Shown: positions 6,311 through 41,832, numbered from the stretch's first letter. The stretch: DNA of 45,209 nucleotides from Ignavibacteria bacterium (GCA_003235555.1 QJVY01000065.1:1-45209), one strand, 5' to 3'. Notes: generated by a model not told the origin, from the letters alone. Program-made: numbers and translations.

Positions 6311-6317
6311 AGAAGGA

Positions 6318-10552: not shown

Positions 10553-10669
10553 GCTGATCCGTCCCGGTCCACCCCCCCCGCCTCACCAGGCCTCCCCTCC
10601 GCCTACCCTCCCATCCCTTTCCCAGAGTTGGCTATTTCAGGCTGTTTCACCTTCCGGACGCCTGAATAC

Positions 10670-10683
10670 ATGACAAAAATCAT
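10670..10683 (+). promoter_or_regulatory. Candidate CRP/FNR-type operator (ATGAC-AAAA-ATCAT; core TGA-N6-TCA)
   Basis: Read directly from the sequence, in the intergenic region downstream of the Crp/Fnr gene. Its centre lies about 68 nt upstream of the ATG at 10745 that opens the cytochrome block. It resembles the TTGAT-N4-ATCAA consensus. This is a single site and is not statistically tested. Confidence 0.35.
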
Positions 10684-10744
10684 TTTTCAACCTTTTCCGC
10701 GTCATACCGGATATGCCCCCTTGTTGTGTATTTTTCATACAGGG

Positions 10745-11617
10745 ATGTGGCGTAAACTGACAAATATTAACCGCGTACTCGTACCGGTAGACCTGACAGA
10801 CGATTCGCTCTGTGCCGTCGAAGCTGCCCTGACCTACTCAAAGGAAAGGAAAGCACAGATCTACCTGATCCATGTCATATCCCCCCATGACGGGGGGACG
10901 GGTTCACCGGAGCCCGGGTCCGCCTCCCCCCACGGTTCCCATCACCACGACGGGGGCGGAAGGCAGTCTTCGATATTGGAGGAATTCTTCCTCAAAAAAA
11001 TCAAACCGCAATCCAACGTGGCCTGCATCCTGAGGGCGGGCACCCCGGCGCGCGAAATCCTCAGGTTCGCCCGGGAGGAGAGTATCGACCTGATCGTCCT
11101 CCCCCTGGCCCCCGCCGCCAGTGCCGGACGGTCCGGCATGAAGGGCATCGCGGACATCGTCATTCGAAACGCGACCGTACCTGTCGTCGTCGTCAAGCCG
11201 GAATCCGCGGCGAGGCAGGTCCCGGGTCTTCATTTTCAGACAAGGAAAAATCCGGCAGGACAGACGGAGGTGAAAAACATCATGAAATACGACGACAAGT
11301 ATCTCCACGAAATCCGGCAGAATGTCTGCTCGAAGTGCATAGACCGGACGGCATCGGGCCTCTGCGTGGCCTCCACGTTCGACGCCTGCGCGATCAACAG
11401 GTACCTTCCGGAGATCATCGACATCGTCCTGGCCGGCCCGGCTGACGATTACGACGACACGGTCGAGCGGCTCCGGGCCCGGGTATGTGCAGCCTGCGAA
11501 CAGCAGTCTCCGGACGGGAGGTGCGACATGAGGGACGACGTGGAGTGTGCCCTCGACAGGTATTTCCCCCTGGTCATCGAAGCGATCCGCGAGGCGGCCA
11601 GGAACAAGAACACCTGA
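10745..11617 (+). CDS. Universal stress protein (UspA) domain fused in frame to a duplicated Cys-rich module of unknown function
   Basis: USP fold motifs are 'NRVLVPVDLTDDS', 'IYLIHVI', 'IDLIVL' and 'VPVVVVK'. The C-terminal about 110 aa contain two copies of C-x2-C-x8-C-x7-C-A-[IL]-[ND]-R-Y-[LF]-P. The start is uncertain: TTG 10628, ATG 10670 and ATG 10745 are all in frame. An internal GGAGGTG sequence with an ATG at 11282 precedes the Cys-rich part. Confidence 0.7.
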   Translation: MWRKLTNINRVLVPVDLTDDSLCAVEAALTYSKERKAQIYLIHVISPHDGGTGSPEPGSASPHGSHHHDGGGRQSSILEEFFLKKIKPQSNVACILRAGTPAREILRFAREESIDLIVLPLAPAASAGRSGMKGIADIVIRNATVPVVVVKPESAARQVPGLHFQTRKNPAGQTEVKNIMKYDDKYLHEIRQNVCSKCIDRTASGLCVASTFDACAINRYLPEIIDIVLAGPADDYDDTVERLRARVCAACEQQSPDGRCDMRDDVECALDRYFPLVIEAIREAARNKNT

Positions 11618-11623
11618 GGTGCC

Positions 11624-16017: not shown

Positions 16018-16897
16018 GAAATTACCGGTGGAGGCGAATGAATTACGGCAGCTCCTCCAGTCGCCGGTGGGGGAGAAACAGTTTCTCCGCTTCAGCCGGC
16101 TGAACAGGGCCCTGCACATCATCCTGATCGTGAGTTTCCTGAGTCTTGCGCTGACCGGACTCACGCTGAAGTTTTCCTATACGGGGTGGGCCGTGGTGCT
16201 CTCCCATGTTCTGGGGGGGTTCGAACTCACAGGTTACCTGCACCGTTTCGCCGCCGTGCTGATGTTTTTGATTTTCTTCATACACCTCGGCGACGTCGTC
16301 CGCATGAAGCGTTCGGAACACCGCTCCTGGGGTTCGGTCATTTTCGGCCCCGACTCCATGATGTTCAACAAAAAAGACCTGTCGGATTTCATCGGTTCGG
16401 TGAAATGGTTCGTGGGGAAGGGCCCCAGGCCGCAGTTCGGCCGCTGGACGTACTGGGAGAAGTTCGACTACTTTGCGGTCTTCTGGGGGGTGGCGGTCAT
16501 CGGTTCCACGGGGCTGATGCTCTGGTTCTCGGAGTTCTTCACGCGGTTCCTCCCCGGCTGGCTGATCAACGTGGCGACGATCATCCACAGCGACGAAGCG
16601 CTTCTCGCGGTCGGGTTCATCTTCACGGTTCATTTCTTCAACACCCACCTCCGCCCCGAAAAATTCCCGATGGACATCGTGATCTTCACCGGACGGATGG
16701 ACGTCGACGAGTTCATGCTCGACAAGCCCGGCGAATACGAGGAGCTGAAGAAATCCGGAAAGCTCGATGAAAAACTGGTTGAACCCTACCAGCCGATCGT
16801 CATCCGGGCCGTGAAGGCCTTCGGGTGGACGGCGCTCACGATCGGGTTCAGCGTCGTGGTCTGGATCATCTACGCCATGCTTTTCGCATACCGGTGA
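16010..16897 (+). CDS. Di-haem cytochrome b membrane subunit (FdnI/HydC/PhsC-like), partner of the 19-haem cytochrome
   Basis: The ATG at 16010 overlaps the upstream stop by 8 nt (ATGGCTGA). The protein is clearly homologous to the C-terminal domain of the 11624 gene: 'RF.R..R..H', '[16 protein letters not shown]', '[21 protein letters not shown]' and '[20 protein letters not shown]'. Confidence 0.85.
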
Positions 16898-16984
16898 CCT
16901 CCCCGAAGATGGAGCGGCCGGCAAGTTTGAGAATTAGCCCGTAATCATTACATTGATCACTGTTTCTTATCATTGTCCCTTTTC

Positions 16985-18481
16985 ATGAAAAGAATCTTTC
17001 CACCGTCATTCTACAACATCATCACGCTCATCGGGACGGCGGTTGCGGGTGTCACCTTCGGGCTGATCCTCTTCCTGATCCTGATCGAATCGATGGCCGC
17101 CCAGGAGAAGCCCTACATGGGCATCGTGACGTTCGTGATTCTCCCGGTGTTTTTGTTGCTGGGCATCGCTGTCATGATCTTCGGGATCATGCGCGAACAC
17201 CACCGCGAGAAATTGGGGAAACCCCACTCCCTCCGTCTTCCGCAGATCGACCTCAACAACCCCAAGCACCGGACCGCGTTCGTGTCCTTCGCGGTCGGCG
17301 GCGTTTTGTTGCTGCTCTTCTCGGCCTTTGGCAGCTTCAAGGCCTACGAGTACACCGACTCCGACCAGTTCTGCGGGGAGACCTGCCACTCGGTCATGGA
17401 GCCGGAATACACCGCTTACCAGTTCTCCCCCCACGCGAAAGTGGGCTGCGTCCAGTGCCACATCGGATCCGGGGCCGACTGGTTCGTCCGGGCGAAAATA
17501 TCCGGCAGTTACCAGCTCTACGCCGTTGCGTTCAACAAGTATCCCAAACCGATCCCGACCCCGATCGAGAACCTCCGTCCGGCCCAGGAGACCTGTGAAC
17601 AGTGCCACTGGCCGAAGCATTTCTTCAGCGAGAAGCAGAGGGTCAACACCTACTTCCTCGCCGACGACGACAACACGAAGTGGAGCATCAACCTGCTGAT
17701 GAAGATCGGCGGGGGCAACATCGAGGCGGGACCCACCTCCGGCATCCACTGGCACATGAACATCGCCCACGAGGTGACGTACAAGGCGCTGGACAGGGAG
17801 CGCCAGGTGATCCCGTGGGTGCGCTCACGGACCCCCGAGGGCGAGGAAACGATCTACAGGAGCACCGAGGTCGAAGTCACGGAAGACTCGCTCGCGAACG
17901 CGTTCACGCGCCGCATGGACTGCATCGACTGCCACAACCGGCCGACGCACATCTACCACCCACCCGCCCCGTCGATAAACCACCTCATGGCCCTCGGGTG
18001 GATCAGTCCCGCCCTTCCCGGCATCAAGGCCGTCAGCCTGGAGGCGCTCGAGGGCGAGTACTCCACGAAGCCGGGCGCGCTCGACACCATCGGCGCGACC
18101 ATCGAGGGATACTACCGGGACAACCACCCGGAAATCCTTTCGACCATGCGCACAGCCGTCGACAGCGCCATCGCCGAGGTCCGGAAGATCTACAGCCGGA
18201 ATTACTTCCCCGAGATGCGGACAGACTGGAAAAAATTTCCCGACAACCTGGGTCACCTGTACTCGCCGGGATGTTTCCGCTGCCACGACGGGAAGCACGT
18301 GACGGACCAGGGGAAGGTACTGTCGAAGGATTGCAACACCTGCCACACCATCCTGGCGCAGAAGTTCGAAAACGATTCACTCAGGATATCGCTCGGAGGT
18401 ATCCAGTACCGGCACCCCGTGGACATCGGAGGGGCGTGGATGGAAATGAACTGCAGCGAATGTCATTCAGCAACCCAGTAG
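16985..18481 (+). CDS. Inner-membrane 7-haem NapC/NirT-like cytochrome c (ImcH-like architecture)
   Basis: There are three N-terminal TM helices. The first haem site, 'FCGETCHSVMEPEY', is NapC/NirT-like but is C-x3-CH. Six canonical CxxCH motifs follow (CVQCH, CEQCH, CIDCH, CFRCH, CNTCH, CSECH). I prefer the ATG at 16985 (MKRIFPP) over the TTG at 16973. Confidence 0.85.
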   Translation: MKRIFPPSFYNIITLIGTAVAGVTFGLILFLILIESMAAQEKPYMGIVTFVILPVFLLLGIAVMIFGIMREHHREKLGKPHSLRLPQIDLNNPKHRTAFVSFAVGGVLLLLFSAFGSFKAYEYTDSDQFCGETCHSVMEPEYTAYQFSPHAKVGCVQCHIGSGADWFVRAKISGSYQLYAVAFNKYPKPIPTPIENLRPAQETCEQCHWPKHFFSEKQRVNTYFLADDDNTKWSINLLMKIGGGNIEAGPTSGIHWHMNIAHEVTYKALDRERQVIPWVRSRTPEGEETIYRSTEVEVTEDSLANAFTRRMDCIDCHNRPTHIYHPPAPSINHLMALGWISPALPGIKAVSLEALEGEYSTKPGALDTIGATIEGYYRDNHPEILSTMRTAVDSAIAEVRKIYSRNYFPEMRTDWKKFPDNLGHLYSPGCFRCHDGKHVTDQGKVLSKDCNTCHTILAQKFENDSLRISLGGIQYRHPVDIGGAWMEMNCSECHSATQ

Positions 18482-18493
18482 CCCAAAACAGAC

Positions 18494-18949
18494 ATGGAAA
18501 ACAGAACGGAACAACCCGCACAGCCCCGCAAGAGGGAACTGCTCATGTGGATTCTCTCGGGGGGCCTGTTCGGCATGGCCGCATCGATACTCTACCCGCT
18601 CTTCGCGTACCTGAAACCGCCCAGGCTCGGCGAGGTGGAAACGTCATCGGTCAAGGCGGGCAAGGTCGACGATTTCCAGGTCGACAGCGGGCAAATCATC
18701 AAATTCGGGACGAAACCCGTGCTGCTGGTCCGGACTCCCAACGATGAATTCCGGGCGTTCTCGGCCGTCTGCACGCACCTCGACTGTACCGTACAGTACC
18801 GCAGGGAGAAAGGGGTGATCTGGTGTGCGTGCCACAACGGAACGTACGACCTGACCGGGAGGAACATCGGCGGACCTCCTCCGAGGCCGCTCGATGAATT
18901 TCGCGTCGTGATCCAGGGAGAGGAGGTTCTCATTTCGAAAAAAGCATGA
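18494..18949 (+). CDS. Rieske [2Fe-2S] subunit of a cytochrome bc/b6f-type complex
   Basis: An N-terminal TM anchor is followed by Rieske box I 'CTHLDCTV' and box II 'CACHNGTYD'. The stop overlaps the start of the cytochrome b gene (ATGA). Confidence 0.9.
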
Positions 18950-20025
18950 AAAAAAGACTGAACATCCTGTACGAGTGGGTCAACGACCGGGTTCATCTCG
19001 AGGACCTCGTCGAATTCCTGGGAAAAAAGTACGTGCCGGTCCACAGCCATTCCGTCTGGTATTACTTCGGCGGGGTTTCCCTCTTCCTGTTCATCATCCA
19101 GGTGGTCACCGGCATCCTCCTCCTGCTGTACTATAAGGGGAGCGAAGAACTGGCCTTCGAGAGCATCAAGTTCATCATGTCCAAGGTGGCGTTCGGCTGG
19201 CTCATCAGGTCGGTCCACAGCTGGGCGGCGAACCTGTTCGTCCTCGCGGCGATGATCCACATGTTCAGCGTCTACTTCACGAAGGCGTACCGGAAACCCC
19301 GCGAAATCACCTGGCTCACCGGCATGCTCATGTTCTTCCTGGTGCTCGGGTTCGGTTTCAGCGGGTACCTCCTTCCCTGGAACGAACTCGCCTTCTTCGC
19401 GACGAAGGTGGGCACGGACATCGCCGGCGTCATCCCGGTCATCGGGAAACCCATCATGGTCTTCCTCCGAGGCGGAGAGGACGTCACGGGAGCGACGCTG
19501 TCCCGGTTCTTCGGTTTCCACGTCGCCGTGTTCCCCGGGATATTCACGGTCCTGCTGGGCATCCACCTCATCCTCGTGCAGCGCCAGGGGATGAGTGAAC
19601 CCCTCCACATCGAACGCGGGGGGGGCAGCGGCGGCAAAACGATGCCCTTCTTCCCGAATTTTCTCCTGCGGGACCTTCTCCTGTGGCTCATCGTGCTCAA
19701 CCTCCTCGCCATCCTCGCGGTGTTCTTCCCCTGGGAACTGGGACAAAAAGCCGACGCGTTCGCCCCGGCCCCCGCCGGAATCAAACCGGAATGGTATTTC
19801 ATGTTCATGTTTCAGACCCTGAAATACATCCCGGCGAAATTATGGATCATCGACGGGGAAGTTTTTGGAATCATGCTTTTCAGCATCGCGGGACTCTTGT
19901 GGACCCTCGTTCCGTTCTGGGACGCCAAGAGTGCACGCGGAGAAAAAAGCCGCCGGATCATTTACATCGGCATCTTCGTCGTCATGTACATCATTGCCCT
20001 GACAATTCTCGGATGGCTCTCATGA
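18946..20025 (+). CDS. Cytochrome b (fused b6 plus subunit IV type)
   Basis: 'VWYYFGG', the helix-B pair '[15 protein letters not shown]' (13 residues between the His), the helix-D pair '[16 protein letters not shown]' (14 between, which is b6-type), '[13 protein letters not shown]', and the Qo-site 'KPEWYF' motif. Confidence 0.95.
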
Positions 20026-21515
20026 ATGGTCGATATCGCGGTTTTCTCACAACGTTCGTCCTCATCTTCCTGTTGCACTGTTCCCCGGCGTTACGTGCTC
20101 AGGACGGGTGCCTGACGTGCCATCAAACCATGGAGGATCCGCGGGCGGCTCTCTTCCTGAAGGACGTCCACAAGGCGAAGGGGTTTTCCTGCGCGGACTG
20201 CCACGGCGGAAACCGGAATGCGGAGGATATGGAGACGGCCATGGATCCCGACGCCGGTTTCAGGGGGGTCCCGTCCGGGGACGAGATCACGGAGATGTGT
20301 TCGACCTGCCACTCGGACGGATCGGCCATGGTCAAGACCTATAATTCCATCCTCCCGTGGGGACAGAAGGCCCTCCTGGAGGCCAGCGTGCACAATAAGC
20401 TCGCCTCGAACGGGAAGGAACGGATCGTCAACTGCGCGACGTGTCACAACGCGCACGGGATCCTCCCGGTGGAAAATCCGGCTTCCCCGGTATATCCGCT
20501 CAACGTGACGAAAACCTGCGGGAAGTGCCACTCCGATGCCTCGTACATGCGGATCTACAATCCCACCATCGCTGTGGACCAGGTCGACAAGTACCGGACG
20601 AGCGTTCACGGGAAGAAAAACGCATCCGGGGACCGCAAGGTGGCCGAATGTGCGAGCTGCCACGGCAGTCATGAGATCCGTTCGGCGAAAGACGTCAAGT
20701 CCAGGGTGTACCCCACGAACGTGCCCGAAACGTGTTCGTCCTGTCACTCGAATCCGGAATACATGGCGGGGTACGGCATCGAGTCGGACCAGTTCGAAAA
20801 ATATTCGAAGAGCGTCCACGGGAAAGCCCTCCTCGAGAAGAACGACATCGGCGCTCCGGCGTGCAACGACTGTCACGGGAACCACGCCGCCACCCCGCCG
20901 GGGGTCGCGTCCGTGTCCAACGTCTGCGGGACGTGTCACGCCCTGAACGCGGATCTCTTCGCCCAGAGCCCCCACAAGGAGGCGTTCGACGAAGCCGACC
21001 TCCCGGAATGCGAAACGTGCCACGGGAATCACGAGATCGTCTCCGCCTCGGAAAAACTTCTCGGCGTCTCCGATGAAGCGGTGTGCAGCTGGTGTCACGG
21101 CGGGGATCCGGAGTCGAAAGGCTATAAGACCGCGGCCTCGATGAGGTTGCTCGCCGACAGCATGGACAGGGCCGAACGCCGGGCAATCGGACTCGTCGAG
21201 GACGCGGAACAGAAAGGCATGGAGATCTCCGACGCGAAGTTCAAACTCCGGGATGCACGGCAGGCCATTCTCCAGTCACGCACCATGGTGCATTCCTTCG
21301 ACGAAGAGAGGTTTCGGGAGGTGATTACCGCCGGTATCGCCGTTACGGCCGTCGCGGGCAGCGAGGCAAACGAGGCGATCGATGAATATTATTTCCGGCG
21401 ATGGGGACTCGTCTTCGCGACGTCGATGCTGATCCTCCTCTCGATTTCACTCTACGTCTACATCCGGAAACTGGAAAAAAGGAAAGAGACCGGAACCCGG
21501 AATTCCGCCGGCTGA
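20022..21515 (+). CDS. 11-haem c-type cytochrome with a C-terminal TM anchor, translationally coupled to the Rieske/cytochrome b genes
   Basis: The ATG at 20022 overlaps the cytochrome b stop (ATGA). Signal peptide [27 protein letters not shown]. There are 11 CxxCH motifs (CLTCH, CADCH, CSTCH, CATCH, CGKCH, CASCH, CSSCH, CNDCH, CGTCH, CETCH, CSWCH). A predicted helical segment and the TM helix '[21 protein letters not shown]' follow. Confidence 0.9.
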
Positions 21516-21571
21516 CGGGGAGACGGGTCGGATGGTCGATGACCGGGATTCTTAATTTTGAGAAACCCGGA

Positions 21572-21589
21572 TATGACGTATCTCATATC
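21572..21589 (+). promoter_or_regulatory. Candidate CRP/FNR-type operator: inverted repeat ATATGA-cgtatc-TCATAT (core TGA-N6-TCA)
   Basis: Read directly from the AT-richer gap between the two cytochrome operons. It shares the ATGAC-N4-nTCAT layout with the site at 10670-10683. Confidence 0.3.
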
Positions 21590-21765
21590 TGAAAATATCA
21601 TGCATCACCCGGACCCTGCCCGGTTGTAAAATCCCCGCTGATACCACTGGAGGCCCATTCCCGGATTCCCTCAATTCCCTCCCGAACTGGCACCAAATTT
21701 GATAGACCTGTACCGGTCTCTTTCCAGATAGTCCCGCCATCAATCATGATGATGAGGAGAGTCAG

Positions 21766-21996
21766 ATGAAGAAGTTCATTTTCATCGCGCAGGTGGTCAG
21801 CGTCTCCCTGATATGGCTCTTCGTCGTCGTCATAACACTCTGGATACTCAACCTTATCTCCCTTTCCATCGATCTCAACGACATGCCCGGTGCCTCCGTA
21901 GGCATCAGCATCGTCGCTATTCCCATCTTCATCACCCTGGCCTCGATCCTCACCTACGTCTTTATCGGATTGCAAAGGGGTAAAAACAAAGGTTAA
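21766..21996 (+). CDS. Small hypothetical two-TM membrane protein
   Basis: 76-aa ORF preceded by GAGGAGAG. The product is strongly hydrophobic (IAQVVSVSLIWLFVVVITLWILNL; ISIVAIPIFITLASILTYVFI). Its composition is AT-richer than its neighbours. I do not recognise the family, so it could be spurious. Confidence 0.45.
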   Translation: MKKFIFIAQVVSVSLIWLFVVVITLWILNLISLSIDLNDMPGASVGISIVAIPIFITLASILTYVFIGLQRGKNKG

Positions 21997-22018
21997 CCAA
22001 CCTCCGAGGAGGAACACG

Positions 22019-23182
22019 ATGGTACGTACACTATTCTGGATGCTCTGCATCATTGTTCCCGGAACACTCTCTGCCCAGGAAATCCGGCTGCCGCAGAACC
22101 CGCTGGAAGGGAGAATCGTCTTCGAGGAGAAGGGTTGCATCGAATGTCACCAGCTCGGGGGATACGGCGGGACCGCGGGACCATCCCTGAGCAAGGACCT
22201 CTACTTCGGGACCGTCCTGGAGTTGGCGACGATCATCTGGAACCATACGCCCCAGATGAACCGCAAATTCCGCCAGATGCGGGTCTCCCGTCCGGAATTC
22301 ACCGAGAAGGAGATGACCGACCTGTTCGGGTTCCTCTACTACCTCAGGTACCTGGGAGAACCCGGCGGGGTGGCGAGGGGAAAGAAGTTGCTCGAATCCA
22401 AGGGCTGCAGGCAGTGCCATTCCCTGGGAGGATCGGGTGGTGGGGTCGGAGTCCCGCTCGATTCGATCACGGTGACCGCGTCCCCCCTCTACATCGTGCA
22501 GTCGATGTGGAACCACGTCCCGGCGATGAAGGAGCAGATCTCGAAGACAAACCTGGTGTACCCCGAACTCTCCGGTCAGGACATCGCCGACATCACGGCC
22601 TACATCCGCCAGGCGACGATGAACACGACGGTCGTGGGGGGCGCGGCACCCGGCGATCCCCACCTGGGAAGGGAAATCTTCGCCTCGAAAGGCTGCAACG
22701 ACTGCCACATGACCGGGGAAGGAAAGAGGAAAATCATCGCCCCCAACCTCTCGCGGATCGAGTTGCGGGAAAGCGTCACCGAAACCGCGAGCCTGATGTG
22801 GAACCACGGCCCGATGATGCTGCAACACATGGAGGACAGGTCGATCGACTGGCCCCGATTCGAGGGGAACGAGATGGCGGACCTGATCGCCTACCTCTAC
22901 TTCCTGGATTTCGAGGACAAACCCGGGGACCCGAAAAAGGGAGAGGGTGTGTTCGCGGCGCGCGGGTGTGGCAGCTGCCACGGGAAAAACGGATCCGGGA
23001 AGGGACCCGACCTGGCGACGATCACGCACTTCGATTCCCCCATCAGGATGATCCAGCTGATGTGGAACCACGCCCAGAGCATGGAGGACATGCTCATCAC
23101 GCAGAACAAGCACTGGCCGGAACTGACCGGTGACGAGATGCGCAACCTCTACGCCTACATCAGGGAAGCAACGAAGAAATAA
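22019..23182 (+). CDS. Tetra-domain class I c-type cytochrome (four tandem monohaem repeats)
   Basis: A strong RBS (GAGGAGG) lies 6 nt upstream, and a signal peptide is present. Four repeats of about 90 aa each carry 'KGC..CH' (CIECH, CRQCH, CNDCH, CGSCH). Each is followed about 30 aa later by 'WNH.P/Q.M', which probably supplies the Met axial ligand. Confidence 0.9.
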   Translation: MVRTLFWMLCIIVPGTLSAQEIRLPQNPLEGRIVFEEKGCIECHQLGGYGGTAGPSLSKDLYFGTVLELATIIWNHTPQMNRKFRQMRVSRPEFTEKEMTDLFGFLYYLRYLGEPGGVARGKKLLESKGCRQCHSLGGSGGGVGVPLDSITVTASPLYIVQSMWNHVPAMKEQISKTNLVYPELSGQDIADITAYIRQATMNTTVVGGAAPGDPHLGREIFASKGCNDCHMTGEGKRKIIAPNLSRIELRESVTETASLMWNHGPMMLQHMEDRSIDWPRFEGNEMADLIAYLYFLDFEDKPGDPKKGEGVFAARGCGSCHGKNGSGKGPDLATITHFDSPIRMIQLMWNHAQSMEDMLITQNKHWPELTGDEMRNLYAYIREATKK

Positions 23183-23211
23183 CCTTCCGACACAACCATA
23201 CCCGGCCGTCG

Positions 23212-23739
23212 ATGAAAGAGTTGAAAACAGGGTCGATCGCGAGCGTTGTCGTCCGATTTGCGTATGCGGGGTGCCTGATCCTTTCCGGGGCATGCGCGAT
23301 CTCTTCGGGGGACGAGCCGGACCAACCCATTGCCTACAATCACAAACTGCATATCGAGACCGTCGGACTCGAGTGCGCGGAGTGCCACCGCTACGTGGAA
23401 ACGTCCGCCGCCGCCACGTTACCACCCCTCGAAGTGTGCCGCTCCTGCCACGAGTCCGAACCGCTCACCGAGTCTCCGGAGGAAACCGTCCTCCTGAAAT
23501 ATGTTGCCGACGGGACCGAGATCCCGTGGAAGAGGATCTATCACGTCCCGGACCACGTCTATTTTTCACATCGCCGGCATGTCGTCCTGGGGGAACTCGA
23601 CTGCGGTCTGTGCCACGGGGTCATGCAGGAGCAGACGGCGCCGGTCCGGTCGGCGTTTCTCGAGGTGAAGATGGAGAACTGCATGGACTGCCACCGGGAA
23701 CACAAGGTCACCAATGATTGTCTCTCCTGTCATCGTTGA
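23212..23739 (+). CDS. Pentahaem c-type cytochrome (ActA/QrcA-like position)
   Basis: An N-terminal hydrophobic anchor is followed by 5 CxxCH motifs (CAECH, CRSCH, CGLCH, CMDCH, CLSCH). The gene sits directly upstream of the molybdopterin-family / FeS / NrfD trio. Confidence 0.85.
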   Translation: MKELKTGSIASVVVRFAYAGCLILSGACAISSGDEPDQPIAYNHKLHIETVGLECAECHRYVETSAAATLPPLEVCRSCHESEPLTESPEETVLLKYVADGTEIPWKRIYHVPDHVYFSHRRHVVLGELDCGLCHGVMQEQTAPVRSAFLEVKMENCMDCHREHKVTNDCLSCHR

Positions 23740-23753
23740 ACGAGGGGTGAAGA

Positions 23754-26210
23754 ATGGAAATTAGTCGACGTGATTTCGTCAAGCTGATCGGGGGGATATC
23801 GGGTAGCGTCGCGCTCGGGGGATGCGCCCTCGACGAAGTGCTGGAGATTCCGGAGAGGATCGTCCGCCGGATGCGCACCGGGCCGGGGCTGGAAACCTGG
23901 AAGAACACCGTCTGCGGATTGTGCCCCGCCGGGTGCGGGATGAGCGTCCGGCTGATCGACTCCGTACCCGTGGGGATCAAGGGGAACGGTCAGTATCCGG
24001 TCAACCAGGGAGGTCTCTGTCCGCTGGGGCTCAACGCACTCCACCTCCTTTACCATCCCGACCGCCTCAAGGGACCCGTCCGGAGGGTGGGGAATCCCGG
24101 GAGCGGGAAATGGGAACCGGTCTCCTGGGATGAAGCACTGACAACGATCGCCGACCGGCTGACAGAACTCCGGAGGTCCGGGCGGTCCCGCGAGGTCGCG
24201 GTCCTCGGCAACACGGAGCGGGGTGTGATGGAGGAACACCTTCGCCGGTTCCTGACGTCGTACGGCTCGCCCAACTACTTCCGATTTTCACCGGAACAGA
24301 ACGATTCGGTCCCCTTCGCGCTCGTCCACGGCCGTCCCGACATTCCCTCGTTCGACCTGCTCGGCGCCGGCCTGGTGTTGAGTTTCGGCGCGAACTTCCT
24401 GGAGGACGGGTGGTCGCCGGTGTATTACACGAAACTCTACAGCCGGCACCGGGAGCAGCAGACGCGGTACATCCAGGTGGAATCGCGCATGAGCATGACC
24501 GCCTCGAACGCCGAACGCTGGATACCCGTGCGTCCCGGGACGTACGGGGCGCTCGCCCTCGGTATCGCGTACGTCCTCATCCGGGAGGACCTCTTCAACG
24601 AACGGTTCGTGCGCAACGACACGTTCGGATTCGAAGACTGGGTCGATACCGCGGGGACGAAACACATCGGTTTCCGGAACATCGTCCTCGGGAACTACTA
24701 CCCGGAGAAGGTCTCGGAAATCACGGGCGTCCCGGCCGCAACGATCCTGGAACTCGGGAGGCTCGTGGGAAGCACGCCGAAGACCGTTGTCATCGGCGGG
24801 TCGGGTGCGGGCGACAATACCAACGGGACATTCTCACAGATGGCCGTTCAGAGCCTCAACGCCCTCCTCGGGAACTACGACCCCGGGGGAGGGGTCTTTT
24901 TCCACGGCCATGCACCGCTCGACCGGTTCCCCGATCTCACGCTCGACGGTCCGGCGAAGGCGGGCATCCGGGCCGAACCGCTCGGCGGCCCCGGGAAGGA
25001 TGCGTATCCCCTGACCGGTTTTTCCATCGATCGCTTTGCGAAGAACGTTGCCGCGGAAGAACCCTACCCCCTCAGCGTCCTCTTCCTCTACGGCGGCAAT
25101 CCCCTCTTCCAGGCGCTGAACCACCAGGACCTTTCCGCCGCGCTGAAGAAGGTCCCGCTCGTCGTCAGTTTTGATACGATCATCAACGAGACGAGCGAGT
25201 ACGCCAACCTCGTGCTCCCCGAACACACGTTCCTGGAGAACTGGGGCGAGGTTTCGGACGTCCCGACGGTCGGGTTTTCGCACCTCGGCATCCGGCAGCC
25301 CGTGGTCGAGGCCCTGCACGACACGCGCAACGCCGGTGACGTGTTCATCGAACTCGCCCGCCGGATCGGCGGCGCCGTCGGCTCGTCGGCCCCGTTCACC
25401 GATTACCTCGGGGGACTCAAACACGCCGTCCGCGGTCTGTACCGGTCCGGCGAGGGCTCCGTGGTCACGCGCGGTCAAAAGACGCGGTGGCTCGAATACC
25501 TCCAGCAGAGGGGATGGCAGAGCGGTCGGTACTCGAGCTTCGATGAGTTCTGGGACCAGCTTCTGACCCACGGGGGCTGGTGGAATCCCGTGCGGCGGGA
25601 TGGGAAGGCGGGCGGCAAATTCCCGACTCCATCCGGGAAGTATGAATTCTACTCCCGGAAACTGATGGATGAACTCCACGCGCGGGCGGACCGCGGCGGG
25701 ACCACGGACTCCCGGGGGAACCTCGAATCGCTGCTGAGCCGCCTGGACATCGCGGCCCGGGGGGACAACGTGGCCCTTCCGCACCACGAGCCCGTGCCCT
25801 ACGAAGGGGACCGTCCGCTCTACCTGGTCACGTTCCAGGTGCTCCCCAACCGTGACGGTGTCGGGGCCGCTCTCCCGATGATGCAGGAAATGTTCGGGTA
25901 CGCGGTGCACGCCCACTGGGAGTCCTGGGTCGAGATCCACCCGGAGACGGCCGCCGCCGCGGGCATATCCTCCGGGGACTGGACCTGGGTGGAGTCGTCG
26001 GTCGGAAGCGTGCGGGTCAGGGCCAGGGTGACGCCCGGCATCATGCCCGATGTTGTCGCGATTCCCTTCGGGATGGGTCACACCTCCTACGGACGGTACG
26101 CGCGGGGCTACGGGGTCAACCCGAACACCATCCTCAGGAACCTCCACGACCGGTTGAGCGGCAAGCCCGCGACCGGGGCGACAAAAATCAGAATCTCACG
26201 TGCAGTCTAA
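23754..26210 (+). CDS. Molybdopterin-oxidoreductase family large subunit (complex iron-sulfur molybdoenzyme, CISM, alpha-like) with a Tat leader
   Basis: 'MEISRRDFVKLIGG...ALGGCA' is a Tat motif plus a possible lipobox. The FS0 motif 'CGLCPAGCG-x27-C' (C-x2-C-x3-C-x27-C) is present. Typical blocks include 'ISWDEAL', 'YGSPN', 'ANF.E', 'RPGTYGALALG' and the C-terminal beta-barrel 'V.IHPETAAAAGISSGDWTWVES..G'. Confidence 0.9.
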   Translation: MEISRRDFVKLIGGISGSVALGGCALDEVLEIPERIVRRMRTGPGLETWKNTVCGLCPAGCGMSVRLIDSVPVGIKGNGQYPVNQGGLCPLGLNALHLLYHPDRLKGPVRRVGNPGSGKWEPVSWDEALTTIADRLTELRRSGRSREVAVLGNTERGVMEEHLRRFLTSYGSPNYFRFSPEQNDSVPFALVHGRPDIPSFDLLGAGLVLSFGANFLEDGWSPVYYTKLYSRHREQQTRYIQVESRMSMTASNAERWIPVRPGTYGALALGIAYVLIREDLFNERFVRNDTFGFEDWVDTAGTKHIGFRNIVLGNYYPEKVSEITGVPAATILELGRLVGSTPKTVVIGGSGAGDNTNGTFSQMAVQSLNALLGNYDPGGGVFFHGHAPLDRFPDLTLDGPAKAGIRAEPLGGPGKDAYPLTGFSIDRFAKNVAAEEPYPLSVLFLYGGNPLFQALNHQDLSAALKKVPLVVSFDTIINETSEYANLVLPEHTFLENWGEVSDVPTVGFSHLGIRQPVVEALHDTRNAGDVFIELARRIGGAVGSSAPFTDYLGGLKHAVRGLYRSGEGSVVTRGQKTRWLEYLQQRGWQSGRYSSFDEFWDQLLTHGGWWNPVRRDGKAGGKFPTPSGKYEFYSRKLMDELHARADRGGTTDSRGNLESLLSRLDIAARGDNVALPHHEPVPYEGDRPLYLVTFQVLPNRDGVGAALPMMQEMFGYAVHAHWESWVEIHPETAAAAGISSGDWTWVESSVGSVRVRARVTPGIMPDVVAIPFGMGHTSYGRYARGYGVNPNTILRNLHDRLSGKPATGATKIRISRAV

Positions 26211-26227
26211 ATCAGAGGGACCCGCCC

Positions 26228-26911
26228 ATGGCTAAATGGACGATGGCGATCGACCTGGACCGGTGCACCGGCTGCGGCGCGTGCATGGTGGCGTGCAAGA
26301 CGGAGAACAACGTCCCCATCGTGACCCCGGAGGAGGCCCACGAGGGCAGGGTGATGAACTGGATGGAGATGATCACCGAGTACGAGGGTGATTATCCCAA
26401 CCTCTCGGTGAGGCGGATGCCGAAACCCTGCTTCCATTGCGACAATCCCCCCTGCACGCGTGTCTGCCCGGTGGGGGCAACGTACCGGAACGAGGAAGGG
26501 CTCGTCGCCCAGATCTACCACCGGTGCATCGGATGCCGGTACTGCATGGTCGCATGCCCCTTCACGGCGAAGGTGTTCAACTGGCATGAACCGATCTGGA
26601 TGGAAGGGGCGGACACCTGTTATAATCCGGACGTGTCGCGGCGGATGGTCGGTGTAGTGGAGAAGTGCTCCTTCTGTGCTCACAGGCTGACGAAAGTGAA
26701 GGAAGAGGCTGACGGGGAGGACCGGTCGAATAACGACGGGGAGTACCTCCCCGCCTGCGCCGAGATCTGCCCCGCGGACGCGATCACGTTCGGGGACCTC
26801 GAGGACAGGACGAGCGCCGTCTACGGGAAGTCGCGGGATTACCGGGCCCACAGGATCATGGAGGACCTGGGTGTGGAACCCAAAGTGTACTACCTTTCGA
26901 AGAGGACGTGA
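26228..26911 (+). CDS. Four-cluster [4Fe-4S] ferredoxin subunit (PsrB/NrfC/QrcC/ActB2-like)
   Basis: Four Cys groups are present: 'CTGCGACMVAC', 'CFHCDNPPCTRVCP', 'CIGCRYCMVACP' and 'CSFC...ACAEICP'. It has no signal peptide of its own, which is consistent with Tat hitch-hiking on the large subunit. Confidence 0.95.
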   Translation: MAKWTMAIDLDRCTGCGACMVACKTENNVPIVTPEEAHEGRVMNWMEMITEYEGDYPNLSVRRMPKPCFHCDNPPCTRVCPVGATYRNEEGLVAQIYHRCIGCRYCMVACPFTAKVFNWHEPIWMEGADTCYNPDVSRRMVGVVEKCSFCAHRLTKVKEEADGEDRSNNDGEYLPACAEICPADAITFGDLEDRTSAVYGKSRDYRAHRIMEDLGVEPKVYYLSKRT

Positions 26912-28254
26912 TGACAGAGAAACATCTTCCCTACGAACACGAACTCGACGCCACGCTCTACAAGCCCATCTATCACACCGGGAAGGGGTACTACCTGACG
27001 GTCGCCGTCCTCCTCGCCGTCATCGTCTGGGCGCTCTACATGTTTTACATGCAGCTCCGGACGGGCCTCGGCCTCACCGGGATGGCTCAGCCGATTTCCT
27101 GGGGCTTCTACATCGTCAATTTCGTGTTCTTCATCGGCATCAGCCATGCGGGGACGCTGATCTCGGCGATCCTCCGCCTCTCCAAGGCGGAGTGGAGGCG
27201 CCCCATCACCCGCATGGCGGAGGTCATCACCGCCATCGTCCTGGCGATCGGGGGGCTGCACCCGATCATCGACCTCGGACGGCCGGACAGGATGCTCAAC
27301 CTTCTCACCTCGGGGCGGCTCCAGTCCCCGCTCCTCTGGGACGTGACCAGTATTACGGCCTACTTCACGGCGAGTACCGTGTACCTGTATGTGCCGATGA
27401 TCCCAGATATCGCCCGCCTGCGCGACCAGGGGGGGAAGATGAAATGGCTCTACACCTTCATGGCCTGGGGATTCACCGGCACCGAGCGCCAGAAACACAT
27501 TCTCAACCGCGCCATCAATATTTTGATGGTGATGGTCATCCCCATCGCGGTTTCGGTGCATACCGTCATTTCCTATATCTTTTCGATGACCCTTCAGCCG
27601 GGCTGGCACAGCACGATCTTCGGCCCGTATTTCGTGGTCGGCGCCATCTTTTCCGGCATCGCGGCCCTGTTGATCGTCATGATCGCCTTCCGGAAGGCCT
27701 TCCACCTGGAGGCGTACCTGAAGGAGATCCACTTCAAGTACCTCAGCACGCTCATGCTGATCATGTCCATCATCTGGTTCTATTTCACCTTCTCGGAGTA
27801 CCTGACGGGTGTCTTCGGCGACGAACCGCATGAAATGGACATCATCATGTACAAGTTCACCGGGCCCTTCGCAGTCTTTTTCTGGGGAATGGTCGTGTGT
27901 AATTTCGTCATCCCGATGGTCCTCCTCGCCTTCAAGAAATTCAAAACGATGACCGGTATCCTCGTAGCTTCCATCGCCGTGGTGACCGGCATGTGGCTGG
28001 AGAGGCTCATCATCGTCGTGCCGTCGCTCGCGAACCCGAGGATGGACCTGCCGATGGGGATCTACATCCCCACCGCGACGGAATGGGCCCTGTTCGCCGG
28101 AGGGATCGCCGTCTTCATCCTCGGTTTCATGCTGTTCGCGAAGATGTTTCCGTTGATTTCGATCTGGGAGATCGAGGAGGGAAGGAAAGAGGGTTTGAAG
28201 GAGGTCGAGGAGAGGATCCACAGCTACCTCCCGTCCACCCCCGGCACGACCTGA
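26908..28254 (+). CDS. NrfD/PsrC-family polytopic quinone-interacting membrane subunit (ActC/QrcD-like size)
   Basis: The 448-aa product is very hydrophobic, with 'WGFYIVNFVFFIGISHAGTLISAILRL' and 'W......ITAYF', which are typical of NrfD family proteins. The start is either GTG 26908 or ATG 26911; both overlap the FeS gene stop. Confidence 0.9.
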   Translation: MMTEKHLPYEHELDATLYKPIYHTGKGYYLTVAVLLAVIVWALYMFYMQLRTGLGLTGMAQPISWGFYIVNFVFFIGISHAGTLISAILRLSKAEWRRPITRMAEVITAIVLAIGGLHPIIDLGRPDRMLNLLTSGRLQSPLLWDVTSITAYFTASTVYLYVPMIPDIARLRDQGGKMKWLYTFMAWGFTGTERQKHILNRAINILMVMVIPIAVSVHTVISYIFSMTLQPGWHSTIFGPYFVVGAIFSGIAALLIVMIAFRKAFHLEAYLKEIHFKYLSTLMLIMSIIWFYFTFSEYLTGVFGDEPHEMDIIMYKFTGPFAVFFWGMVVCNFVIPMVLLAFKKFKTMTGILVASIAVVTGMWLERLIIVVPSLANPRMDLPMGIYIPTATEWALFAGGIAVFILGFMLFAKMFPLISIWEIEEGRKEGLKEVEERIHSYLPSTPGTT

Positions 28255-29390: not shown

Positions 29391-30869
29391 GTGAAAATGA
29401 GAGCCATAGTGTACATCCTTTCCACCGTGTTCATCCCGGTATGGGGGTGGTCGCAACCGGCAATCGAATGGAGCAATGCATACTATGGTGCGGTGGAGGG
29501 AGCCGCATACGCTTTAGCTGCTACCAGCGACGGAGGGTGTGTTTTTGGAGATCGGTATTGGCCCGGAATAGATGAGGTCCGTTTGGTGAAAATCTCTGAA
29601 CAGGGGGATATTTTGTGGGATCGACGATTCAACGGACATGGGCTCTACGGCACACGCATGAGATCAATGTCACCGACCCCGGATGGTGGGTTCATTCTGC
29701 TCGGCGATTATTGGACGTCTACCAGCATTCATGACATACATCTGATAAAAACGGATTCCTCGGGATTTTACGAGTGGGAACAAACCTTCTCCGATACCAC
29801 TCTCCTGTACGCCAGCTCCGTTGCCGCGTTACCGGGCGGGGGATTTATCATCTCGTGCACCCAGGAAACGGTCAACACCGGCAACACCAATGTGAAGATG
29901 GTAAAACTGGATTCAGCCGGGTCACCGATATGGTCACGGCTCTATGGCGGCCCTGGGACGGAATACGGCAAACTCTCCACCCTCGGTGACGGCGGATTTA
30001 TCTGCGTCGGAGGAACAACGTCTTCCGGGGCCGGTGGAACGGATGTGTGGCTGGTCCGATTGACACCGGACGGCGACACACTCTGGACAAGGACCTACGG
30101 GGGCTCCCTCGAAGAAGCGGGAAATTCGATCGTCACGATGCCAGACGGTGGATTCATGATCTGTGGCAGGACATCGTCCTCCGGGGCCGGTGGATCAGAC
30201 GGCCTGTTGATACGAACCGACAGCCTGGGGAATCAGCTGTGGATGCAGACATACGGAGACAGCGCGGAGGATTGGTTCAACGCGATTGCCCTGCTCAATG
30301 ACACCTCACTGGTCATGGTCGGGGCCACCGCCAGTCAGTACAGCTGGTTGAGATATGCTTACGCAGTCGGAGCGGATACGAGTGGAGAGGAAAAATGGTC
30401 ACTGTCCTTCGGATGGCCCGTCGTCGGATCACCCCATATTTCCGCGATAAAGTCAGTTGCACTTGGGGTGACCCCAGGCCAAAACGGTCGAATATTTATA
30501 GGAGGCTCGGTGGCGTATACCTATAATTATGGATCCTTCAGTGATGCCGGGGTCAGCGGTTTAAGAATCACACCCACATCCGTGGAGATTCAAGCCGATG
30601 TGCCGGAGCGGCATCTTCTCCATCAAAATTATCCCAACCCCTTTAACCCCACAACGACGATCAGGTTCGATATCACGCAAGGGTCCTTCGTGAAATTGCG
30701 GATCTTCGACGTCACGGGTCGTGAGCTCCTCACGCCGGTAAACGAATATCTCGGACCCGGGTCATACAGCACGGACGTCGGGATGCCTGCGTATCCCTCC
30801 GGGGTGTATTACTATCAACTCCAGACCCCGGCATTCACCTCCATCAGGAAAATGATCCTGATGAAATGA
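29391..30869 (+). CDS. Secreted repeat protein with a T9SS C-terminal sorting domain
   Basis: A signal peptide is present. The unit 'DGGF(I/M).(V/C)G.T.SSGAGG.D..L+R.D..G..LW..TYGG' recurs. The C-terminus is 'HQNYPNPFNPTTTIRF...LRIFDVTGREL...SGVYYYQL'. The composition is visibly AT-richer than the flanking genes. Confidence 0.8.
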   Translation: MKMRAIVYILSTVFIPVWGWSQPAIEWSNAYYGAVEGAAYALAATSDGGCVFGDRYWPGIDEVRLVKISEQGDILWDRRFNGHGLYGTRMRSMSPTPDGGFILLGDYWTSTSIHDIHLIKTDSSGFYEWEQTFSDTTLLYASSVAALPGGGFIISCTQETVNTGNTNVKMVKLDSAGSPIWSRLYGGPGTEYGKLSTLGDGGFICVGGTTSSGAGGTDVWLVRLTPDGDTLWTRTYGGSLEEAGNSIVTMPDGGFMICGRTSSSGAGGSDGLLIRTDSLGNQLWMQTYGDSAEDWFNAIALLNDTSLVMVGATASQYSWLRYAYAVGADTSGEEKWSLSFGWPVVGSPHISAIKSVALGVTPGQNGRIFIGGSVAYTYNYGSFSDAGVSGLRITPTSVEIQADVPERHLLHQNYPNPFNPTTTIRFDITQGSFVKLRIFDVTGRELLTPVNEYLGPGSYSTDVGMPAYPSGVYYYQLQTPAFTSIRKMILMK

Positions 30870-34831: not shown

Positions 34832-36112
34832 TTACTTCTGCAGGACAAGGTTCCTGGTCTGGGAGGAGGACCCCGCCTCTAACCGATAGTAGTATACCCC
34901 TCCCGCAAACCCTTCGGCGTTCCACTCGCGTGAATACACGCCAGACGCGAGATGTTCGGACACCAGCGTGGAAACTACCCTGCCCAGAACGTCATACACC
35001 TTGAGTGTGACGAATCCGCCCTGCGGAATCCGGAATTCGATGACCGTCCCCGGGTTGAAGGGGTTCGGATAGTTCTGACTCAAACCAAAATTCTTCGGCA
35101 GTTCGGACGGGGCGGTGCGGATACCGGTCACCACCTCGGAAAGCGGCCTGCGCCAGAGGCCCTCGATGTCGTTGCCCCAGAACAGGTATCCTTTTCCGGT
35201 TGAGAGGTAGCTCAACCCTCCGCTGTCCGGCAGGTTCTCCGTCACATCCGTCCAGCTTTCGCCGTTATCCGTCGTCATCTGGACACCGATATCCGTATCG
35301 AACTGATACCGGCCGGATTGTACAAAGAGTGCCGGTCCCGCCGACGCAAGATTGTTGGCATTCCGGCTCTGCAGATTCGTCTGCTGCCAGGATGTGCCGC
35401 TGTCCGTCGAAATGAAGAGACCGCCCCATTCAAGGATTCCCGTTGACAAACCCGCGAAAGCCGCGAAGCCCCCTCCCGGCGCCGGTGTAAAAGCCCAGTC
35501 CATGGCCCTTTCCGGTATTCCCGACGACCATGTGGATCCCGTGTCCGATGAATATGCTGAAACATCGTAATTGCTGGCGAACATGTACGGACCGATGACG
35601 GCCAATGTCGACGCGCAGCCGATTCCATCCCACAACGGGGACCAGGTATCGCCGTAGTCGGTCGACCGGAAGATGCCATCGGAATATGTTCCGGCATAGA
35701 GATAGGTACCGCCGGATGGAGCCGGCCCTGTGGCGAGGGACGCGATCGCGGAATCGGTGAGGCCCGTGTTGACGGGGACCCACTGATCTCCGTTGTCCGT
35801 GGAGCGGAAGACACCCCCGCTGATAAACACCTGTGCCGTAGCGGTGAAGAGTGTGGTATCGATGACAGCGAGTGACGGGGTGTAGAGGTTCGAGAGGCCA
35901 CCGTTGACCGCGACCCACGTTGAGCCGTCATCGGTGGAACGAAAGACGCCGTTCCCCCAGGTGCCGACGAACAGGGCGCCCCCAAGGGTAACCACCTTCT
36001 GCGGGGACAGGCTGTCCAGGCCGACGGACACCCACTGGGCGTGAGAAACGGATATCGTTGTCAGCGACAGGATTGCGATAAGACTGAACGACCCGAAGAA
36101 CCTGTAAACCAT
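34832..36112 (-). CDS. Secreted BNR/Asp-box repeat (beta-propeller) protein with a T9SS C-terminal sorting domain
   Basis: At least six Asp-box repeats are present (S.D.G.(T/Q)W: 'STDDGSTW', 'STDNGDQW', 'STDYGDTW', 'SSDTGSTW', 'STDSGTSW', 'TTDNGESW'). The C-terminus is 'SQNYPNPFNPGTVIEF...LKVYDVLGRVV...GGVYYYRL'. Confidence 0.85.
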   Translation of the reverse strand: MVYRFFGSFSLIAILSLTTISVSHAQWVSVGLDSLSPQKVVTLGGALFVGTWGNGVFRSTDDGSTWVAVNGGLSNLYTPSLAVIDTTLFTATAQVFISGGVFRSTDNGDQWVPVNTGLTDSAIASLATGPAPSGGTYLYAGTYSDGIFRSTDYGDTWSPLWDGIGCASTLAVIGPYMFASNYDVSAYSSDTGSTWSSGIPERAMDWAFTPAPGGGFAAFAGLSTGILEWGGLFISTDSGTSWQQTNLQSRNANNLASAGPALFVQSGRYQFDTDIGVQMTTDNGESWTDVTENLPDSGGLSYLSTGKGYLFWGNDIEGLWRRPLSEVVTGIRTAPSELPKNFGLSQNYPNPFNPGTVIEFRIPQGGFVTLKVYDVLGRVVSTLVSEHLASGVYSREWNAEGFAGGVYYYRLEAGSSSQTRNLVLQK

Positions 36113-36224: not shown

Positions 36225-38480
<2,256 letters not shown>

Positions 38481-41638: not shown

Positions 41639-41832
41639 GGTGAGGAGCCCGGATGTCGTGTCAGGTATGCACGGGAAAGTAGAAACTTCCGGCGAAATAT
41701 TCAACGAACGCGCCCACGCGAGCCCGCTCCACGAATCGGCCGGCAGAGGCTTGTCCGCATGTGCGGTCCTGCGTGGATTTCACCCGCCCTTTATTTATAT
41801 TAAAGACCGATTTCACTAATCTCCGGGATTCA

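Follow-up and report, generated by a model that had tools for sequence, protein, structure and literature searches.

The DNA described here is a 45-kb window (45,209 nucleotides) from an Ignavibacteria bacterium (GCA_003235555.1 QJVY01000065.1:1-45209). At positions 21766-28254 it encodes a two-helix membrane protein, a tetrahaem cytochrome c, a pentahaem cytochrome c (subunit A), a MopB-fold protein with a twin-arginine translocation (Tat) signal (B), an iron–sulfur (FeS) protein (C), and an NrfD-family membrane protein (D) (Table 1). The genes make it highly probable that the region specifies one molybdenum-free respiratory membrane complex of the alternative complex III (ACIII)/Qrc family and not a substrate-reducing molybdoenzyme. 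That the complex has all six components is probable. The open reading frames (ORFs) for A, B, C, and D are all found, on the plus strand, at the positions and in the order given by a sequence-only reading of the region (pentahaem cytochrome, Tat-exported molybdopterin-family protein of 818 aa, four-cluster FeS protein, and NrfD protein of 448 aa). The gene for D starts with GTG and overlaps the stop codon of C by 4 nt.

Table 1. Features of the window, with the six-gene set first and the surrounding genes below it
Feature	Coordinates	Strand	Basis or position
Two-helix membrane protein, 76 aa	21766-21996	+	small-ORF scan
Tetrahaem cytochrome c, 387 aa	22019-23182	+	four CxxCH; Pfam
Subunit A, pentahaem cytochrome c, 175 aa	23212-23739	+	five CxxCH
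Subunit B, Tat-signal MopB-fold protein, 818 aa, N-terminus MEISRRDFVKL	23754-26210	+	Pfam, PDB matches
Subunit C, FeS protein, 227 aa, 16 Cys	26228-26911	+	four ferredoxin-type Cys motifs
Subunit D, NrfD-family membrane protein, 448 aa	26908-28254	+	Pfam NrfD 128 bits
Crp/Fnr-family regulator	9842-10552	+	first gene of island
Universal stress protein (Usp)	10628-11617	+	second gene of island
13-CxxCH cytochrome c fused to C-terminal cytochrome b561/Ni_hydr_CYTB membrane domain, 766 aa	11624-13924	+	
Cytochrome with 19 CxxCH	13921-16017	+	island
b561-like protein	15938-16897	+	island
NrfH/NapC-like protein, 502 aa, 6 CxxCH	starts four-gene run 16973-21515	+	
Rieske protein	18494-18949	+	island
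Fused cytochrome b6/subunit IV	18946-20025	+	island
11-haem cytochrome with C-terminal helix	about 20049-21515	+	directly before six-gene set
Futalosine-pathway menaquinone biosynthesis gene	41761-42678	+	Pfam VitK2_biosynth
Two-domain haem peroxidase, looks like catalase-peroxidase KatG	36225-38408	-	Pfam 'peroxidase', two stretches
Secreted protein, type IX secretion system (T9SS) C-terminal sorting domain, DUF1501 domain; paired with DUF1800 protein (4373-6310)	6318-7931	+	
Secreted protein with T9SS C-terminal sorting domain	29391-30869	+	
Secreted protein with T9SS C-terminal sorting domain	34832-36112	-	

Subunit B retains the fold of a molybdoenzyme. Its Pfam domains are Molybdopterin (114 bits), Molydop_binding (65 bits), and Molybdop_Fe4S4 (37 bits), and phmmer searches of the PDB give alignments over its full length to Shewanella ANA-3 ArrA (6cz7, E 7e-77) and to PsrA of Thermus (2vpw, E 4e-48), while ActB chains are matched at E 1e-8 to 1e-20 only. 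The AlphaFold2 model (mean pLDDT 86, pTM 0.89) has ArrA as its top Foldseek match (TM 0.82), and ActB chains are absent from the top 50 matches. A scan of 185,579 species genomes yielded at least 551 confirmed relatives of B. The best 80 of these, all from metagenome-assembled genomes (MAGs), were compared at the level of the locus (L numbers). In pairwise comparisons, B scores 620 bits against the B-like protein of L017, which has a Cys at the Mo-ligand position, 447-480 bits against QrcB, and 264 bits against ActB1. Its NCBIfam scores lie below the cut-offs of QrcB (292/440), ArrA (270/1600), and PhsA (281/694).

The FS0 motif of B, C-x2-C-x3-C-x27-C, is formed by Cys54, Cys57, Cys61, and Cys89 within VCGLCPAGCG...GGLCPLG and is as perfect as the sequence-only reading had described. 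More than 100 homologues of B share 41-89% identity with it, and in 20 homologues spanning that range all four cysteines are invariant. The same reading had quoted this string together with YGSPNYFRFSPEQNDS, the stretch in which it saw no Mo ligand, and ALGGCA; all three are found in B.

The absence of a Mo-ligand residue is borne out as well. A gap of three residues in B faces the 'svC' of ArrA, in which Cys153 of the 6cz7 chain (Cys193 of the precursor) is the Mo ligand, and a similar gap faces the 'Cta' of PsrA, which contains the Mo ligand Cys173 (2vpw). In MAFFT alignments, the ligand column is a gap in 16/16 members of the window clade and Cys in 7/7 relatives treated as catalytic (ArrA, PsrA, L016, L017, L026, L026b, and L028). 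Across the 20 homologues, the loop from GSPN to the next invariant Gly contains no conserved Cys, Ser, Asp, or other residue. The loss of the ligand residue is real and not an alignment artefact.

Other positions of the active site are degenerate as well. The second residue past the fourth FS0 cysteine is Leu91 in B and L, M, S, or A in the window clade, while it is K (five) or R (two) in the seven catalytic relatives; it corresponds to Lys44 of FdhH, where Arg is the only substitute with which any activity is retained. The Asp of the PGTD motif is lost (PGTY in B; Y, M, F, or H across the clade), as are two domain-IV positions that are an invariant K and R in catalytic proteins. R165, Y166, H189, and K198, reported as the arsenate-site residues in the ArrA structure, align with T, E, F, and D of B. 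Over the 70 columns identical in at least six of the seven catalytic sequences, retention is 0.94 in the catalytic proteins, 0.77 in canonical QrcB, 0.74 in the window clade, and 0.61 in one ActB1.

Because the ligand and the other catalytic-invariant positions are degenerate while the fold is intact, B is very probably without pterin, in the same state as QrcB. The literature describes QrcB as lacking a Mo/W-pterin cofactor and as having no activity, and a 2026 paper describes it as lacking redox cofactors of any kind. A catalytic Psr/Phs/Arr-type reductase is rejected because the ligand is deleted, the K/R conduit and active-site residues are gone, and the scores fall below the cut-offs. B nests neither in canonical QrcB, from which it forms a separate neighbor-joining (NJ) clade, nor in ActB. 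On the basis of Mo-site loss, FS0 retention, and family placement, the best reading of B is that of an electron-transfer scaffold and not a reductase, as had been proposed. The 'ALGGCA' at the end of the Tat leader had been put forward as a possible lipobox. Its LGGC does fit the pattern, but the Cys occurs in just 11/20 family members, and lipoprotein anchoring is not supported as a family trait. The similar Cys74 of Rhodothermus marinus ActB is the end of a removed 74-residue signal.

Retention of FS0 after loss of Mo is not peculiar to the window protein. The motif is present in 28/28 canonical QrcB from genome loci and in 120/120 QrcB-type database matches, including those of Desulfacinum hydrothermale and Desulfoglaeba alkanexedens; these 120 best matches are Syntrophobacterales-like, and the set leaves out the QrcB of Desulfovibrio vulgaris, the biochemically studied protein. 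In all 148 sequences, Leu or another hydrophobic residue replaces the Lys, and 98 of the 120 matches have Leu in a CPLG motif identical to that of the window. The Mo-ligand column of canonical QrcB is A, I, V, or E. FS0 cysteines are lacking in both solved ActB sequences that were aligned (R. marinus and Chloroflexus aurantiacus). A Gemmatimonadota MAG (L031) encodes a fused ActB in which the cysteine motif is retained and followed by Arg (CARG), and split ActB1 proteins with CX2CX3CX27C are known from iron oxidisers (Kato et al. 2015, PMC4643136). The idea that FS0 without Mo marks a peculiar intermediate state does not, therefore, hold.

Subunit A contains CxxCH motifs at residues 55, 76, 131, 157, and 170 and one N-terminal hydrophobic helix. 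It belongs to the cytochrome c7/c3 families of Pfam, and its best PDB matches are the ActA subunits of four ACIII structures (E 1e-20 to 1e-23; 8k9e_A 1.1e-23, 6f0k_A 1.7e-23). By sequence, A is ActA/QrcA-like.

Subunit C is, on the same grounds, ActB2/QrcC-like. It has 4Fe-4S dicluster domains (Pfam) and no signal peptide, and it matches residues 797-1024 of R. marinus ActB in the PDB with 201.5 bits (E 1.2e-58). Pairwise scores are 227 bits against the ActB2 of L031 and 225-244 bits against canonical QrcC. The proximal cluster motif reads CIGCRYC, in which Cys103 is conserved in 17/17 window-clade members; in the ActB2 of R. marinus and L031 this position is Thr (CxxTxxC), the signature of a [3Fe-4S] cluster. 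Since C has four full cysteine motifs and a Cys where ActB2 has Thr, it is predicted to carry four [4Fe-4S] clusters. Tyr105, located between two cysteines of the proximal cluster, is conserved and is the equivalent of QrcC Tyr113.

Subunit D is a close homologue of ActC, outside the QrcD/HybB/HmcC branch. Over residues 21-424 it matches the ActC of four ACIII structures in the PDB at E 9e-70 to 1e-66 (229-239 bits), as opposed to E 1e-9 only for ActF, and QrcD is not detected by phmmer with D at 1e-5. In the NJ tree, D groups with ActC, while canonical QrcD forms its own clade (bootstrap 100). Of the residues listed for R. marinus ActC (Calisto and Pereira 2021, PMC8076601), 13/13 of the N-side half-channel are identical in D (HTSRRETYSDRDH), as are 5/6 of the P-side half-channel (YTEEER in D vs YYEEER in ActC). 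The quinol-site residues are D-S-D-I in D vs H-S-D-D in ActC: His139 of ActC is replaced by Asp, Asp169 is kept, and Asp253 is replaced by Ile. Nearly all D proteins of the ABCD family share D-S-D-[IVL]; H-S-D-D is found in the four true ActC sequences. At almost all of the listed channel and quinol-site positions, QrcD has other residues, but the Asp that is the first quinone-site residue of D is also found in QrcD. Duarte et al. link the divergence between ActC and QrcD to opposite reaction directions. No second NrfD ORF adjoins D in the window, and no ActF-like ORF is present in any window-clade locus.

Two further genes accompany A-D. The 76-aa protein has two predicted transmembrane helices and matches no Pfam family. 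A hidden Markov model built from seven copies detects it (E 1e-30 to 1e-40) directly upstream of the tetrahaem cytochrome gene, both in the window and in 15 loci, and no fusion of the two proteins occurs among the 80 loci. It has 129 database homologues of 58-97% identity, the named ones mostly labeled 'hypothetical protein'. The tetrahaem cytochrome carries an N-terminal signal peptide and CxxCH motifs at residues 40, 130, 226, and 317, each followed by WNHxxxM, and thus consists of four tandem class-I-type domains (Pfam Cytochrom_C 94.7 bits, Cytochrome_CBB3 73.5 bits). Most loci with an ActC-like D have a four-CxxCH homologue next to ABCD.

In the window and in L001-L004 the pair precedes A; in L007, L009-L015, L030, L035, and L065 it follows D. 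That it switches sides yet stays with ABCD is good evidence for a functional unit. The cytochrome is probably the electron output or input partner, a functional analogue of ActE, and the two-helix protein is a candidate sixth subunit, possibly with the role of ActD or as an anchor for the cytochrome. Equivalents of ActD, ActE, and ActF had been thought absent; this stands for ActF, whereas for the other two, functional stand-ins may be encoded directly upstream of A.

On the basis of these comparisons, the window cluster is a member of a widespread sister family seen in MAGs only. Hosts among the relatives include Bacteroidota/Ignavibacteria, Rhodothermales, KSB1, Calditrichia, Fidelibacterota, and Gemmatimonadota, as well as Acidobacteriota, Nitrospirota, Planctomycetota, Chloroflexota, and Desulfobacterota. 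The B protein of the window groups with those of Bacteroidota, Ignavibacteria, Rhodothermales, and Fidelibacterota in an NJ tree (bootstrap 80), separate from canonical Qrc (bootstrap 100). A pentahaem gene lies directly upstream of B in 64 loci whose B lacks the ligand Cys and in 0/4 Cys-bearing loci. Nine further Cys-less loci were scored as lacking this gene, at least three of them (L032, L039, and L055) only through an over-extended B ORF. The four Cys-bearing loci (L016, L017, L026, and L028), of which L016 and L017 hold the nearest relatives, encode FeS and 10-helix NrfD partners but no pentahaem subunit. Their B-like proteins read 'HSSIC[AE]DG' and fall together with ArrA and PsrA, and the group presumably represents catalytic ArrA/Psr-like enzymes.

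In L031, a complete canonical fused ACIII (ActA, ActB, ActC ... ActF) lies directly upstream of ABCD and the tetrahaem cytochrome (positions 1-13702), showing that both systems coexist as paralogues. In five Syntrophia-type loci (L018, L020, L022, L023, and L024), B retains roughly 90% of the catalytic-invariant positions, among them the Lys by FS0 and the PGTD Asp, and has Gly at the Mo-ligand position, while C has Val at the [3Fe-4S]/[4Fe-4S] switch position. The B of these loci could be a recently inactivated or an unconventional enzyme.

By sequence, the complex of the window is a mosaic: B belongs to the QrcB/Psr type and D to the ActC type, with A and C intermediate. With the ACIII of R. 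marinus (6F0K), Flavobacterium johnsoniae (6BTM), Roseiflexus (6LOD), and Chloroflexus (8K9E), it shares a pentahaem ActA-type subunit, an ActB2-like FeS module, an ActC-type membrane subunit with 18/19 of the listed channel residues, a Mo-free MopB-fold subunit, and an extra c-type cytochrome. However, there are several differences. ACIII has a fused ActB (B1 and B2), while B and C are separate ORFs in the window; ActB1 is farther from B than are ArrA, Psr, and QrcB; and FS0 cysteines are present in B but not in the ActB of R. marinus or C. aurantiacus. The proximal cluster of ACIII is [3Fe-4S], as opposed to a [4Fe-4S] motif in the window, and the quinol site is HSDD, as opposed to DSDI. ACIII has ActF and ActD, whereas the window has no ActF and encodes the two-helix protein in place of a recognisable ActD; ActE has one haem, the extra cytochrome of the window four. 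A canonical ACIII is rejected because B and C are split, the proximal motif is that of a [4Fe-4S] cluster, the quinol site is altered, and ActF is lacking.

The likeness to Qrc, the menaquinone reductase of D. vulgaris and other sulfate reducers, lies in the A-B-C-D order, the B/C split, a Tat-signal Mo-free B with FS0 cysteines and a hydrophobic residue for Lys, and the conserved Tyr in the proximal cluster of C. Against the NCBIfam equivalog models of QrcA-D (NF041781-4), however, the window subunits score below the cut-offs (in bits, A 100/180, B 292/440, C 283/400, and D 35/570), whereas control Qrc loci from Desulfobacterota pass (QrcB 491-512 in L077, L057, and L042; QrcD 648-670 in L077 and L057). 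The membrane subunit of Qrc is of the QrcD/HybB branch, as opposed to the ActC branch in the window. A canonical Qrc is thus ruled out by the equivalog cut-offs and the ActC-type D. The hosts differ as well: Qrc is described as confined to Deltaproteobacteria, while the window type occurs in MAGs of the Bacteroidota/Ignavibacteria type and has the extra tetrahaem cytochrome and two-helix protein. A Qrc-like organisation with an ACIII-like pentahaem, as first described, is accordingly correct for the B/C split and for A, but the likeness to ACIII goes further and extends to an ActC-type D and to the match of C with ActB2.

ACIII/Qrc-type complexes derived from complex iron–sulfur molybdoenzymes are a known kind, and a split FS0-bearing ActB1 and a four-haem ActE-like protein are already reported in genome papers. 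The actAB1B2CDEF clusters of iron oxidisers (Kato et al. 2015, PMC4643136) resemble the window in their split ActB1/ActB2 and CX2CX3CX27C motif, and cluster 4 of MBNT15 (Begmatov et al. 2022, PMC9386147) in an ActE-like protein with four haems; neither is linked to oxidase genes, as in the window. By their descriptions, these clusters are set apart in containing ActD and, in the iron oxidisers, ActE and ActF as well. The catalytic ArrAB(C) and PsrABC/PhsABC systems provide the best sequence and fold matches of B and have the same three-part layout of Mo, FeS, and NrfD subunits. They possess the Mo-ligand Cys and the K/R conduit and lack a pentahaem subunit; the window is the opposite on each count. 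The combination of an ActC-type DSD[IVL] site, an all-[4Fe-4S] FeS subunit, no ActF, the two-helix protein, and synteny with Rieske/cytochrome b/multihaem genes was not found described in the papers searched, and the term 'Qrc-like' was not found in the literature searched.

The six-gene set ends an electron-transport island (9842-28254) in which every gene lies on the same strand (Table 1). The Crp/Fnr regulator and Usp at its head suggest oxygen or redox control. The fusion of a 13-haem cytochrome to a b561 domain recalls in its layout CbcL, an inner-membrane quinol oxidase of Geobacter. The trio of Rieske protein, cytochrome b, and 11-haem cytochrome is syntenic with ABCD in L001-L004, L013, L030, L035, and L074, and the two-helix ORF and the tetrahaem cytochrome gene sit between trio and ABCD in the window and in several of the syntenic loci. 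In sulfate reducers, Qrc works with TpIc3 and a periplasmic hydrogenase or formate dehydrogenase (Fdh). No hydrogenase, Fdh, Dsr, or Apr genes are seen within the 45 kb of the window, and a scan for promoters and terminators gave nothing above shuffled expectation. The futalosine-pathway gene together with the KatG-like peroxidase suggests a menaquinone user exposed to some oxygen, and the T9SS sorting domains of neighboring genes, together with the nearest homologues, point to a host of the Bacteroidota/Ignavibacteria type.

It is moderately likely that the complex works as a menaquinol:cytochrome c oxidoreductase with proton translocation. B would serve as a scaffold and, because C has no signal peptide, would carry C across the membrane on its own Tat signal. 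Menaquinol would be oxidised at the P-side site of D, and electrons would pass through the FeS wire of C and the haem wire of A to the tetrahaem cytochrome c, which would feed periplasmic or terminal acceptors. Proton translocation would be coupled to this electron transfer through the half-channels of D, which are of the ActC type. FS0 in B may play a structural part or extend the FeS wire into a dead end, comparable to the FeS2-4 branch of ACIII. Beyond its first cluster, the FeS wire of R. marinus ACIII is described as a branch of 'elusive' role; as FS0 is kept, this branch would be one cluster longer in the complex of the window. The quinol-to-cytochrome direction is the best reading of the ActC channel residues in D, the partner cytochrome with class-I His/Met domains, and the adjoining Rieske/cytochrome b complex. 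The futalosine-pathway gene supports menaquinone as the quinone.

Several observations weigh against parts of this account. As regards direction, C has a [4Fe-4S] motif where ACIII has a high-potential [3Fe-4S] cluster, two of the quinol-site residues differ from ActC (Asp for His139, as in QrcD, and Ile for Asp253), the best NCBIfam models of A, B, and C are those of Qrc, and the island is rich in multihaem cytochromes, which are possible electron donors. As regards composition, an ActD homology of the two-helix protein is unsupported, with no Pfam match and no detectable similarity to ActD. As regards the Mo-free state, arsenite oxidase is not known to have a protein ligand to its Mo, and a missing ligand alone is no proof. 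The invariance of the FS0 cysteines in every Cys-less clade suggests selection on a working cluster and not a merely structural one. Finally, in NJ trees rooted on ActB1 or at the midpoint, the deep order of the Cys-less clades has bootstrap values below 50.

The alternative that survives best is operation in the direction of Qrc, which is rather unlikely. Periplasmic cytochromes (the tetrahaem c or neighboring multihaem proteins), supplied by hydrogen, formate, Fe(II), or an electrode-like donor, would deliver electrons for the reduction of menaquinone at D with cytoplasmic protons, forming an electrogenic redox loop. The Qrc features listed above accord with it: the top NCBIfam matches of A, B, and C; the gene order and split; FS0 with the Lys-to-Leu change (CPLG) common to B and QrcB; a C with [4Fe-4S] clusters throughout; and Asp as the first quinone-site residue. 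For the ACIII-like complexes that iron oxidisers possess, reverse operation has likewise been proposed (Kato et al. 2015, PMC4643136). However, all four subunits score under the Qrc equivalog cut-offs, and D in particular is not QrcD-like and has the ActC channel residues, at nearly all of which QrcD differs. Furthermore, class-I cytochrome domains with His/Met ligation usually have high potentials, and electron transfer from a partner with four such domains to the quinone would be uphill.

A further possibility, which we consider improbable, gives FS0 a redox function. It would be a working center in B, either as another point at which electrons leave or enter the FeS wire, with the tetrahaem cytochrome docked there, or as a Mo-independent catalytic [4Fe-4S] cluster, and the six proteins and the Rieske/cytochrome b/11-haem complex would form one unit sharing the intervening cytochrome.

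Least probable, and very improbable in itself, is a catalytic B that is merely fed by the cytochromes, with a Mo/W-bisPGD (bis-pyranopterin guanosine dinucleotide) center bearing an unconventional protein ligand or none, as in arsenite oxidase, or with Mo-independent chemistry at FS0; the invariant FS0 cysteines, the full four-domain fold with its detected Molydop_binding domain and match to ArrA, the higher score against Cys-bearing L017 than against QrcB, and a 2025 preprint claiming FS0-dependent, Mo-independent catalysis in Salmonella DmsA paralogues speak for it, but the ligand loop is short and variable within the family, the FS0-adjacent Lys/Arg, PGTD Asp, domain-IV Lys/Arg, and ArrA arsenate-site residues are lost, B is as degenerate as QrcB, a protein reported to lack both cofactor and activity, and across the family the loss of the Cys coincides with the gain of a pentahaem partner.

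Two respiratory complexes that derive from a gutted molybdoenzyme have been characterised, ACIII and Qrc. The Mo-free complex of the window would represent a third arrangement: its B and C genes are of the Qrc type, its D is of the ActC type but has another quinol site, its FeS wire is predicted to hold [4Fe-4S] clusters throughout, ActF is missing, and two further components accompany it. Complexes of this type are widely distributed among uncultured bacteria and have been touched on only in passing in genome papers. Automated annotation labels B a 'molybdopterin-dependent oxidoreductase' or an 'anaerobic selenocysteine-containing dehydrogenase', and such labels invite wrong inferences from MAGs, for example of polysulfide, thiosulfate, or arsenate respiration. 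A single ActC-type subunit without ActF offers a minimal system for asking whether ActC alone pumps protons, and the complex is also suited to asking what purpose the non-haem FeS branch of ACIII serves. The chief practical value of the finding thus lies in the correct annotation of MAGs and in a minimal system for ActC proton pumping.

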